64,000 bases of DNA, taken from assembly GCA_051599415.1 (NCBI GenBank), contig AP039701.1, forward strand, positions 124,001 to 188,000, in the 5' to 3' direction. Origin of the DNA: Savitreella phatthalungensis. Taxonomy: Eukaryota. Under the pieces are notes generated by a model. It was not told the origin of the DNA, ran no database searches, and saw nothing but the letters and a program-made list of their open reading frames with translations. Shown here piece by piece: positions 4,186 to 58,327 of the stretch (position 1 is its first letter; every line of letters begins with the position of its first letter). Position numbers and translations under genes: made by a program.

Positions 4186-4824
4186 GACGAAATTATACTG
4201 CACAGATGGCTCTGAACACTCAGATCAGAGCTTCGAGAAGGTGTAATTACAGATCTCTGGTGACGCGGAACCACGACGCGACCGGTCTACGTTACAATCA
4301 ATGAATCGTCTGGCCTACGCAATCAGGTAAGATTCAGCCACATGTGGCGCGTTACATTGTCGGGGTTCCAGGTTCTGGTTCAAAGGTTAAATTGATTCAC
4401 TCGGATGCACAGTGCTCTCATTTCTGTGAACACACATGATGCAGAAACTTCAACTGCTCATTGAATAGCGTCAGGTTTGCACGTGTACAATACCTTCAGA
4501 CATGTTAGAAGCCCAGATCGATAGAGACTGAGCCCTGGTCATGTCAAGGATAGTGCAGAGCGGTCATTCGTCAAGTCAGTCCCGGTGAGATGCATAAGCT
4601 ACATGATATGAGTCTCTCATCTTCTGAAGTGAGCGTTACATCTCAGTACTGCCGACAGTCCATATTCTTCATGCGACTTGTCCCCTGGGCGTGTCACGAC
4701 AGAGACTAGCCAGCATGAACATCAGGTCATCAGACGCGCATGCCTGTGGAACTAGTAACCTGTGATGACAACCAAACAGCATTCGTACGTGTCGCGCGGT
4801 AGACCTCTATTACCCAGGGAGAAT

Positions 4825-5248
4825 TTACTGGGCAAGGATGTCGGAGTCACCTCCGTCGGAGACAGAGAGGCAGCCGACGCGGAAGAGCTTACCGCAAGCG
4901 GTGCCGAGCTCGATGTTGTTTCCGGCGTAGTGGTGAACATTGCACTTGGCCAGCATGGCGTAGTACTCGAGCTCAGACTTGCGGAGCGGTGGGGTGTTGG
5001 CCGAGATGATGATCAGCTTGGCTATAATAGAAAGACCGCGTTAGTACACTTTCATATTCGTTGTACCCCATGACATGGGTGGTTCTGTCTGCATGGATCT
5101 CCATGGACTAGGATGTCTTACCCTTTCCACTTCGCAGGTCCTTGAGCACCGACTTGTAGCCGAGCTTGAACTTGCCGGACTTGATAGTCAGGGCAAGCTT
5201 GGAGTTGATGCCCTCCTTGTTCTGCTTCTTGTTTGCCTTTGGCGCCAT
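4825..5248 (-). CDS. RPL30: 60S ribosomal protein eL30; exons 5248-5122 and 5021-4825 (absent from ORF track)
   Basis: Spliced translation [75 protein letters not shown]; 100-nt intron with GTAAG and TACTAAC. Confidence 0.97.
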
Positions 5249-5253
5249 TTCTG

Positions 5254-5315
5254 TAGAAGTTTTGGAATGAACTTCGCTCGTGCCGTAGACAGTCTCTGCG
5301 ATGCTAAAACTTCTA
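5254..5315 (-). promoter_or_regulatory. Putative kink-turn-containing hairpin in RPL30 5' leader
   Basis: Perfect 10-bp stem TAGAAGTTTT/AAAACTTCTA enclosing TCGC-AGAGA..GA-GCGA. Confidence 0.5.
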
Positions 5316-5747
5316 AGTGTCGTTGTCGTCGGATGTTTTCGAGGAACGGAGTGCTGGAGTCACTCGCCGAACGCTGGTCACCCCTGTTGCTGAGCCGGTC
5401 CAACGGACCTGTGCGTGAGTGTGGTTGTGGTTCGGGCAGGTTGCTACTGCATCGTGAATCGAGCAACCAAATCAAAAATCCATCAGTGTGAGAAAATATT
5501 CTCGCGCTCAATCAAATACTGGGACAGGTGTATCTGACAAGAGTGACAAACAAATTCATTTTCAGCTGATCACTTTTGGTCTGCTCACCTCCATACCTCC
5601 TCTCCCTCACTCGCAGACTCACACAGACAGAGTCGCCTAGGTGGGCACTCGACGGCAGGGTCAGGACTGCACTACGGCGACAGGCTCATCCTAGTACCAA
5701 CAAAAGAAGATTGCCAGACACGAACAAAAGAAGTATCATCCACAGCC

Positions 5748-6191
5748 ATGCCTACGCGTCTCTCGAACACCCGCAAGCACCGTGGTCACGTCTCGGCCGG
5801 CCACGGTCGTATCGGCAAGCACAGAAAGCACCCGGGAGGTCGTGGTCTTGCCGGTGGTCAGCACCACCACCGCATTAACATGGACAAGTACCATCCTGGT
5901 TACTTCGGTAAGGTCGGTATGCGTTACTTCCACGACCTTCGTCAGGACCGCACCACTGTCAACCTCGACAAGCTCTACTCGCTCTTCACTCCTGAGGTGC
6001 GCGAGAAGCTCGAGGCTGACGGTTTTGGCGACAAGGCTCCCGTGCTCGACCTCACCTCGCTTGGTTACCTCAAGCTGCTCGGCAAGGGCCGCATCCCTGC
6101 CCGCCCGATCATCGTCCAGGCCCGCTACGTCTCTCGCCGTGCGGAGGAGAAGATCAAGGCTGCCGGTGGCGTCGTCGTCATCAAGGCATAA
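5748..6191 (+). CDS. RPL28: 60S ribosomal protein uL15 (yeast L28 / L27a)
   Basis: [35 protein letters not shown] signature; strong codon bias. Confidence 0.98.
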
Positions 6192-10782: not shown

Positions 10783-11536
10783 GTTGGCTGGTTCAAATAT
10801 GAGGTGACTTTTGATACAGTATGAACACGTGCACATTATACTTTTCATTCTTTCTCAGTCCCAATAATTACCGGACATATATAAAAATCATTGATTATCT
10901 TAGCTCCTCAACTAAAAGTTTTCTGAATCTCAATAGCAATATTCATTTCAGAGTGGAAACATTCACTGCATGATTGATTATTCTGTATCCATTTTTTCAT
11001 TTAGAGTTTCTCCTCTTTCCCATTTCCCACTTTTGAATTTCTCCTCTTAAGCTTTGTTTTTCTGACAATGAATTCGATCGATATATTGCAAGCCCTGCAT
11101 CCATCGGATCTATTTACGGATAGAGTGAATGATCGAGTGAATAATAAGTGTATGTGTGAATAGAGAGAGATAGTATATCCAGTCTAGAGGCAGGAAACAG
11201 AGTAAAGTGGAACAGAGTATGAGTATAGTAGAGTACAGTAGAGTAGATGCAACGAATGACATCGACCACTACCAACACCACCACCACAACCTCTACATCA
11301 TCACATCCTACCTCACACATTCTACCTTACAGCCATCCTACATCTCATCATCAAATCCTCGGTCCTAGAACTCGACTCGTCCAGTCCTCCTTCTCTCGAG
11401 CGCAGCGCATTGTATCTCTCCTATCGATCATCAAGCGCGGCCACCGTTCCCTTAGACAACAAAGCCAACAGGGCCTCTGTAAGTATTTAATTTGCTCGCA
11501 GGCGCAAAGCCGCAGCAGCCCCCAAACCTCGGCGTC

Positions 11537-57754: not shown

Positions 57755-58327
57755 CTATGCCCTTGTCTGGTTGTCTAAGGTGGATCCCTGTCAGTATTTT
57801 TTGATGTTCGAGCATAGAGGAAGAGGATTGCTTGAGCTCACTGTAGTCTGCACCGCCTGCTTTGCGGAGTCTGGGTACGATGACCTTTTCATCTAGATCT
57901 GCTTCTCTCTCTGCATCGACCTGGATTGAAAAGTGCTGAAGGACCTGCCTGACTTGTGCAGCGAGGATTCCTACTTTCGCCTTTCGCATCACCTTCGTTC
58001 CCTGGCCGATCCACACCACAAACACAAACTTCTCGCGCTTGGATTCTGTGTCGTTGGCGTACGTTACTTTGGCGTACCCGTACGCTGCATCATCACGGTC
58101 CAGTGACTTGGACATCTCGGAAAGACCGCCGGTACCAGTTCCTTTCACGACGAGCTTGTCACCTTTGGCTTCAGCGTAAGAGAGAAGTAGCCTGTTTGGA
58201 TATGTGTCAGTCGGGGGTTTGAGTGGAGATCAGTACGCGGATGAATATACCAATTGGTGTCTGTCTTGTCATTACGAACGTCATCGTACGCGGCTTTGAT
58301 CTCTTCAGTCTGTGCTGGATTACTCAT
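57755..58327 (-). CDS. Coactosin-like ADF-H protein; exons 58327-58251, 58191-57842, 57774-57755
   Basis: AYDDVRNDKTDTNWLLLSY, GTGGL, KREKFVFVVWIG, LRKAGGADY; two canonical introns. Confidence 0.88.

Follow-up and report, generated by a model that had tools for sequence, protein, structure and literature searches.

The 64,000-nucleotide (nt) stretch of Savitreella phatthalungensis DNA analysed here (contig AP039701.1, positions 124,001 to 188,000; hereafter the window) carries on its minus strand a gene for the ribosomal protein eL30 (RPL30), the predicted leader of which contains a 62-nt hairpin (5315..5254) ending 5 nt (CAGAA) upstream of the start codon. We consider it fairly probable that this hairpin is a local, polarity-reversed form of the eL30 feedback kink-turn (k-turn), located in the messenger RNA (mRNA) leader of a Taphrinomycotina-like eL30 gene, where it would be bound by eL30 and repress translation. 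Autoregulation of eL30 is the textbook example in eukaryotes of how a ribosomal protein monitors its own surplus by means of an RNA that mimics its ribosomal RNA (rRNA) site; to our knowledge, the details have been worked out in budding yeast alone. What is new is the hairpin orientation of a known feedback site, and no new principle is involved. The letter-by-letter parse of 5315..5254, CAGAA and the ATG at 5248–5246 given in an earlier sequence-only reading was reproduced exactly on the minus strand.

The hairpin is built around a k-turn core, with a canonical (C) and a non-canonical (NC) helix, whose parts, read from the sequence, are:

5274..5301, minus strand: k-turn core hairpin, 28 nt (scanner type A, C=4, NC=4)
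5301–5298, minus strand: C helix, 5′ strand UCGC
5297–5295, minus strand: bulge L1–L3, AGA
5294–5293, minus strand: G1b and A2b
5292, minus strand: 3b, C
5291–5288, minus strand: NC helix, UGUC strand
5287–5285, minus strand: triloop
5284–5281, minus strand: NC helix, GGCA strand
5280, minus strand: 3n, C
5279–5278, minus strand: G2n and A1n
5277–5274, minus strand: C helix, 3′ strand GCGA

On the bulged strand a C helix, a 3-nt bulge and an NC helix follow one another (UCGC / AGA / GA-C-UGUC, 5301–5288). The tandem G.A and A.G pairs are formed by G5294 and A5293 opposite G5279 and A5278, in a register confirmed by a purpose-written k-turn scanner which covers both hairpin polarities; the -1b:-1n pair is Watson–Crick (C5298:G5277), and the 3b:3n pair is non-Watson–Crick (C5292.C5280). 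Measured against the k-turn nomenclature and consensus rules of PMC6298567 (section 5), the core 5301..5274 agrees with a standard k-turn in every sequence-level respect, its geometry being predicted. It also has the 2+5 purine internal loop, GA opposite AGAGA closed by C:G, of the eL30 autoregulatory sites. The C–C mismatch flanking the loop, once entered as a caveat, loses its force: it occupies the 3b:3n position, which is normally non-Watson–Crick, and both C at 3b and C:G at -1b:-1n favour folding (PMC6298567). Rfam returned nothing relevant for positions 4700–5800 at E ≤ 10 and, at its gathering thresholds, only a tRNA in ten k-turn-bearing loci, yeast-type ones included; none of these sites is represented by an Rfam model.

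For comparison with other fungi, metagenomes were scanned with exon 2 of the window's gene, and 80 of 202 confirmed eL30 loci were used. By tblastn, exon 1 was located in all but one of the 80, 78 times on the plus strand; L016 (no exon 1) and L007 (opposite strand) were excluded from the k-turn scan. Thirteen loci have a k-turn of yeast-type polarity with the AUG always in the same register, the start codon being A2b-U3b-G4b of the k-turn, including at loci that have no nearby intron:

L002, L003, L008, L026, L028, L031, L032, L033, L034, L070, L076: yeast-type, by scanner
L005 (cut by the contig start), L073 (G.U at -1): yeast-type, by inspection and pattern

The arrangement is exemplified by L033 and L034, which we take, from their N-terminus and the intron right after ATG-G, to correspond to S. 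cerevisiae RPL30. Their non-bulged strand (..CCG-GA-GUG..) lies near the 5′ end and their bulged strand (..CGC-AGA-GA-UGG..) about 34 nt downstream, with A2b-U3b-G as the start codon and the 5′ splice site directly after it. L033/L034, L031, L028, L008 and L032 have (C)GC- or UAC-AGA-GA facing GA-G.. and the AUG at A2b-U3b-G; in the lineages of all 13 AUG-embedded loci, binding of eL30 would sequester the AUG directly. The earlier description of the window's core as S. cerevisiae-like is upheld by L033, which has the same CGC-AGAGA / GA, and the comparison with L033 likewise bears out the claim that the strand order is reversed relative to the yeast-type site.

A table in k-turn register was compiled for 14 leaders, those of the window and of 13 loci (without L034, a duplicate). 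Pairing at positions -1 to -3 is seen in all 14, with two to four pair types at each, and positions 4 and 5 are paired in 13/13; -1b:-1n is C:G in 13 of the 14, and the tandem GA/GA is present throughout (14/14). The bulge is AGA in nine leaders counting the window and L001, that is, in 8/13 besides the window. The same k-turn core is thus found across distant ascomycetes, in 13 yeast-type loci and two reversed ones.

S. cerevisiae RPL30 (formerly L32) resembles the window's element in several respects: the gene is the same, GA stands opposite AGAGA in a 2+5 loop with a C:G closing pair and CGC beside the bulge, the site lies at the 5′ end of the transcript, probably in the window as well, and the presumed ligand is eL30 with its feedback logic. 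The topology differs. In yeast the NC helix is outermost and holds both AUG and 5′ splice site, and a loop of about 34 nt closes the C helix; in the window it is the C helix that lies outside, a triloop caps the NC helix, and 25 nt separate the k-turn from the AUG downstream of it, with the 5′ splice site about 150 nt away. The 3b:3n pair is U.G in yeast and C.C in the window.

Among the loci scanned, the order with the bulged strand first and a capped NC helix is found in the window and in L001 only. Of the 80 loci, L001 matches exon 2 best (81%), and the protein P0123 is 89% identical to the window's exon 2 and 87% to the eL30 of L001; the best identities of L001 to named proteins are at most 80% for eL30 and at most 69% for Imp3. 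Its hairpin (2345–2372) ends 2–3 nt before the ATG of an eL30 open reading frame (ORF) that has no intron. It has an AGA bulge and GA/GA; a 5-nt loop tops its NC helix of 2 bp, and in its C helix of 5 bp the pairs -2 to -4, behind the conserved C:G, differ from those of the window and still pair.

Support of a different kind comes from transcripts. Twelve sequencing runs were listed (best share of words 0.20), and the four examined (X1, X2, X3 and X5) all consist of assembled contigs. One contig in each of the four carries the joint 5021 to 5122, with the codon-43 intron removed, and because this intron is skipped the examined runs must contain complementary DNA (cDNA); the placement of the coding intron at codon 43, as read earlier, is thereby borne out. 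The gene is organised as follows:

5246..5253, minus strand: CAGAA linker and eL30 start codon (ATG 5248–5246)
5248..5122, minus strand: eL30 exon 1, 42 codons and one base (ORF list, tblastn)
5121..5022, minus strand: eL30 intron, 100 nt, GT..AG, TACTAAC branch site, phase 1, at codon 43
5021..4825, minus strand: eL30 exon 2, stop codon included (Pfam PF01248, E 1.1e-13)

Two of the runs hold cDNA of a close relative, approximately 96% identical to the window: a spliced contig of 235 nt (X5 record 18) and one that has the same variants where it covers them (X2 record 10). Over the 50 leader bases covered (5249–5298), the relative has substitutions at 5250, 5251, 5259 and 5266 and deletions at 5258 and 5264; all six events fall in 5250–5266 and none in 5267–5298. 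Its exon 1 has two changes in 127 nt. With the core boundary set at the scanner's a-priori 5274, the confinement of 6/6 events to the non-core half has a hypergeometric p of about 0.011 (own arithmetic). The sequence-only reading had made conservation in relatives a condition of its proposal, and this was found twice over, in the unchanged k-turn bases 5267–5298 of the relative's cDNA and in the same design in L001. Since two of the six events lie in the 3′ arm of the outer stem, that stem appears less constrained than the k-turn, unless its 5′ arm compensates. The cDNA contigs have no loose end and terminate at 5272 (X1, near-identical to the window), about 5270 (X2) and 5298 (X5, the relative); their coverage places in the mRNA the outer 3′ arm together with the non-bulged strand, loop, NC helix and bulge, and a single C-helix base. 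Contig ends of this type cannot mark a transcription start site (TSS), and the uncovered stretch 5299–5648 is uninformative on its position.

Outside the core, the hairpin comprises an outer stem and an extension of the C helix:

5306..5315, minus strand: outer stem, 5′ arm; perfect 10 bp; beyond cDNA contig coverage
5254..5263, minus strand: outer stem, 3′ arm; in cDNA contigs of X1, X2 and X5; in the relative, 5259 substituted and 5258 deleted
5302..5305, minus strand: C-helix extension, 5′ side; AGC pairs with GUU (5272–5270) across an A5302/A5273 mismatch, in the minimum free energy (MFE) and centroid structures; no cDNA contig coverage
5264..5273, minus strand: C-helix extension, 3′ side, and 6-nt bulge (A5273, GUU 5272–5270, CAUUCC 5269–5264); in the relative, 5266 substituted and 5264 deleted

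The arms form a 15-nt inverted repeat (5254–5268 / 5301–5315) of 87%, of which the outermost 10 bp are perfect. Folding of the hairpin in isolation yields the proposed structure as MFE and centroid alike (-14.5 kcal/mol, z -1.65, with 12 of 200 shuffles equally stable), and in transcripts of 91 and 321 nt beginning at 5320 it is predicted as an independent domain in both; the core alone gives -6.3 kcal/mol (z +0.42) in nearest-neighbour folding, which does not model k-turns. Perfect inverted repeats of at least 10 bp with loops of 3–60 nt occur four times in the window, against 2.84 +/- 1.75 in 50 shuffles, so that the outer stem taken alone is at chance level. The perfect 10-bp stem pointed out by the sequence-only reading is therefore present, but its value as a signal was overstated, given this chance frequency and the alteration of its 3′ arm in a close relative.

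The word GAAGUU occurs twice in the leader (5313–5308 and 5275–5270, minus strand), which gives the outer 3′ arm two possible partners: the far 5′ arm, over 10 bp, and the near GAAGUU, over 6 bp that include the last C-helix base. The latter pairing is the centroid of a transcript begun at 5302, which has no outer 5′ arm. The duplication hints at a two-state leader, as judged from the predicted fold alone.

We envisage that eL30 in excess of the demand of ribosome assembly would bind the G.A/A.G core and the AGA bulge, and would lock an otherwise weak hairpin into its kinked form. The kinked hairpin, 25 nt before the AUG and probably near the cap, would then hinder 43S loading or scanning to the AUG and so lower eL30 translation. 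The protein is suited to this role in that its RNA-binding GKLFRVG stretch, which contains the aromatic residue described as the main contact (PMC3706390), is invariant in our eL30 alignment (A1). L30 is reported to bind the k-turn of both its own pre-mRNA, with effect on splicing, and its mature mRNA, with effect on translation (PMC3706390), and in yeast it blocks U2 binding at a structure formed by exon 1 and the intron (PMC11585973). Direct occlusion of a splice site is impossible in the window, as the sole intron lies at codon 43; translational feedback is the most economical reading because the 5′ splice site is some 150 nt off and unpaired with the k-turn, and because L001 is intron-less. 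This reading draws directly on the fit of the sequence, its conservation, the identical design in L001 and the transcription of most of the element. The binding of eL30, the repression and translation as the affected step are what we infer from these.

A number of observations weigh against it. With upstream sequence included, in a 201-nt stretch beginning at 5400, another fold wins and the hairpin is outside the MFE structure; its nearest-neighbour stability is ordinary, as the z-scores of both hairpin and core indicate. Loose k-turn patterns are frequent, with 645 matches in 128 kb at C ≥3 and NC ≥2. Coverage by cDNA stops at 5298, short of the C-helix bases 5299–5301 and of the outer 5′ arm, and the reversed examples amount to two and one partial relative, which precludes a formal covariation statistic. 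The finding of L001 as one of about 65 loci inspected has a chance of approximately 0.06 (own arithmetic). A strict protein-triggered switch is weakened by the C at 3b and the C:G at -1b:-1n, which permit protein-free folding in Mg2+ (PMC6298567). Finally, for 64 of the 78 loci with a plus-strand exon 1 the scanner detected no k-turn at the start codon; many of these 64 are Agaricomycete-like, and a few have less than 100 nt of upstream sequence. The k-turn device is evidently dispensable in many fungi.

The principal rival accepts that eL30 binds the k-turn and places the regulated step in the nucleus, as inhibition of codon-43 splicing or as nuclear decay. It has precedent in S. pombe, also of the Taphrinomycotina, where Rpl30-1 lowers the splicing of rpl30-2 and the transcript is a target of Mmi1 and the exosome (PMC4695336), and in S. 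cerevisiae, where L30 acts on splicing co-transcriptionally (PMC11585973); the gene in the window, moreover, retains an intron. We nevertheless regard it as unlikely, since the k-turn is separated by about 150 nt from the downstream 5′ splice site at 5121, which enters no predicted pairing with the leader, when yeast repression needs that site within the structure, and since L001 has the same reversed k-turn before an intron-less eL30 ORF. No unspliced contigs were seen either, though contigs drop rare forms. A different objection is that the hairpin has no role in eL30 regulation and that the conserved block belongs, for example, to the promoter which RPL30 and RPL28 share, as a core-promoter or TSS element. 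The chance frequency of the outer stem, the ordinary stability, the lack of a k-turn in most fungal eL30 loci examined and the k-turn-like patterns elsewhere in the window for which no role is plausible (58174–58205, plus strand; 11375–11401, minus strand) could all be explained in this way. The resemblance, however, reaches down to the yeast-type core CGC-AGAGA / GA-G, in the only gene for which that core is known to function; L001, the locus that matches best, repeats the design with a stem that covaries, and the relative's changes avoid the core. Compact k-turns of this polarity with an AGA bulge (C ≥4 bp, NC ≥2 bp) number 13 in 687,454 strand-bases, of which two are the RPL30 leaders of the window and L001 and the other 11 are background, giving a chance of about 1.6e-5 per base or about 0.001 per 60-nt leader; the joint chance is about 1e-5 or less (own arithmetic in each case). 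Coincidence is thus decidedly unlikely.

Since proteins of the L7Ae family share k-turn recognition (PMC3706390), and the NC helix is short, capped and reminiscent of a k-loop, Snu13, Nhp2, eL8 or eS12 might bind in place of eL30, or the element might be part of a small processed RNA. This is very improbable: the Rfam search gave no small nucleolar RNA or other family here, C/D box sequences are absent, the element is continuous with spliced eL30 mRNA in the cDNA contigs, and the bulge and closing pair match the eL30 sites of other fungi. Of the two modes of eL30 autoregulation that the sequence-only reading had put forward, the one acting on translation has become the best reading through the relative's conserved core and the reversed design of L001, whereas the other, a cryptic 40-nt leader intron (GTCTAC..TACAG, 5290..5251) with its donor in the hairpin and regulated by eL30, is barely credible. 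Nothing apart from the GT and AG dinucleotides speaks for such an intron; the donor is poor, there is no branch-site match, and 40 nt compares with 100 nt for the gene's real intron. The corresponding 5290–5251 junction was absent from the joints listed for the examined runs, and contigs of X1, X2 and X5 cross 5251–5272/5298 unspliced.

Two published systems help to place the translational feedback proposed for the window. Li and Breaker (2017; PMC5640933) described an 'rpl30 motif', a hairpin with an internal loop that is conserved and rich in purines, present within the 5′ untranslated region (UTR) in L30 mRNAs of non-Saccharomycotina fungi (47 examples, 26 species), which they proposed as an L30 autoregulatory site; in the part of its Table S1 covered here all species are Pezizomycotina, and the paper does not name the motif a k-turn. 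The loci L002, L003, L005, L026, L070, L073 and L076 of our scan probably show this motif, and differ from the window in having the yeast-like polarity with the AUG inside the k-turn. Protein matches mark L002, L003, L005 and L073 as Pezizomycotina-like, judged by the best hit, and L070 and L076 as probably so; the Pezizomycotina-like k-turn loci have no intron at the AUG. The window's k-turn is indeed detached from the intron, as had been stated, but this placement is not unusual, with intron-free k-turns also in the Pezizomycotina-like loci and a 5′-UTR motif of rpl30 already published in 2017 (PMC5640933). No report of an RPL30 k-turn of reversed polarity, or from Taphrinomycotina, was found in the literature covered, which extended to neither the alignments of PMC5640933 nor most of the primary yeast papers.

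The second system is the archaeal l7ae leader, in which a ribosomal protein of the L7Ae family binds a weak stem-loop of its own leader and represses translation (Daume 2017, PMC5539422; Huang, Ashraf and Lilley 2019, PMC6298567). These stem-loops are weak and protein-dependent, and occur in both hairpin polarities (PMC6298567). The ligand there is L7Ae and not eL30, in another domain of life; the bulge is GAU instead of AGA, and repression is by occlusion of the Shine–Dalgarno sequence as opposed to the block of cap-dependent scanning suggested here. Within Taphrinomycotina, the rpl30-1 / rpl30-2 pair of S. pombe (Lemieux 2011, cited in PMC4695336) is alike in being eL30 feedback in another lineage, and unlike in acting on splicing and nuclear decay of a paralogue; no RNA site is described in the part of PMC4695336 available.

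Taken with the other loci of the scan, the window shows that the eL30 k-turn core is not bound to an intron and exists in two hairpin polarities, as in the archaeal L7Ae leaders. The element is also a compact natural candidate for an eL30-responsive 5′-UTR module (28–39 nt), and offers a test of whether position relative to the cap or AUG suffices for feedback, with neither splice site nor AUG occluded.

As to how the reversed form arose, ACAGAAAUGG at the eL30 start codon (5255–5242, minus strand) is one base (G1b to A) from the yeast-type bulged strand AGAGAUGG, which is present in 8 of the 13 yeast-type loci. The context of ACAGAAAUGG is either what is left of an older k-turn that embedded the AUG or no more than an A-rich surrounding for initiation. 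We suggest, as a tentative scenario which is rather more doubtful than not, that eL30 k-turn feedback is ancestral to Ascomycota, that the site was rebuilt by circular permutation in a Taphrinomycotina-like lineage, and that ACAGAAAUGG is the decayed old bulged strand. A new bulged strand would have arisen upstream of the old non-bulged strand (..GA-GCG..), and a long-range helix sequestering the AUG would have given way to a compact, possibly cap-proximal roadblock resembling a k-loop. In that case a protein-binding RNA switch would have retained ligand and logic, with a new topology and a new way of acting: a block of scanning or of the cap in place of the hiding of a splice site or AUG. Separately, a 14-nt string around the ATG is common to the window and L004 (about 139–160), and L004 has no k-turn.

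Regarding the background of k-turn patterns, the window's 128 kb of strands contain 41 matches to the pattern with C ≥4 and NC ≥4. The two further compact AGA-bulge hairpins mentioned above are antisense to an ADF-H/coactosin-like gene (58174–58205, plus strand) and antisense upstream of a large gene (11375–11401, minus strand); as they lie antisense to, or outside, plausible transcripts, we take them as background.

A second joint, 5022 to 5151 with 28 letters between, occurs in all four runs, where a divergent spliced eL30 cDNA is aligned in part. The 28 letters are identical in X2, X3 and X5 and different in X1; the joint is an artefact of paralogous cDNA from other organisms in the samples, and there is no alternative splice form here.

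Further sequence words were noted upstream of eL30 genes. A AACTGTATAGT-like word lies about 70–110 nt upstream of the ATG in Agaricomycete-like loci (L036–L080), and CAGTCACA, which resembles the fission-yeast HomolD box, is found upstream in L001 and in a group with the N-terminus MPPKKSKK (L010–L012, L030, L061); both are probably core-promoter elements. Neither is present in the window's eL30/uL15 intergenic region. A search for HomolD-type boxes with at most one mismatch gave none in 5249–5747, window-wide counts below those of shuffles, and hence no TSS landmark. When viral contigs were searched for eL30 no match was obtained, and genome contigs gave only a 28-residue fragment (L081), which is of the eukaryotic type (71% identity) and sits at the extreme end (last 1.6 kb) of a 95-kb contig, JBCCYK010000001.1, from a metagenome-assembled genome labelled Planctomycetota; this contig end may be chimeric or contaminated.

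The neighbouring gene is divergent to that of eL30:

5748..6191, plus strand: uL15 (RPL28/L27a) gene (Pfam PF00828; 84% to the Protomyces L28 protein)

Its product shares 84% identity with that of Protomyces lactucae-debilis and 72% with that of Saitoella, the closest among the named proteins searched, which marks the organism as a Taphrinomycotina-like ascomycete with no entry of its own in that protein collection. The divergent promoters of eL30 and uL15 (RPL28) share an intergenic region of 499 bp (5249–5747). A near-identical cDNA contig (X1 record 6) spans 5649–5800, from which it follows that the 5′ UTR of uL15 measures 99 nt or more, a considerable length among ribosomal protein genes; yeast RPL28 is itself described as autoregulated (G3 2026, PMC13232506).

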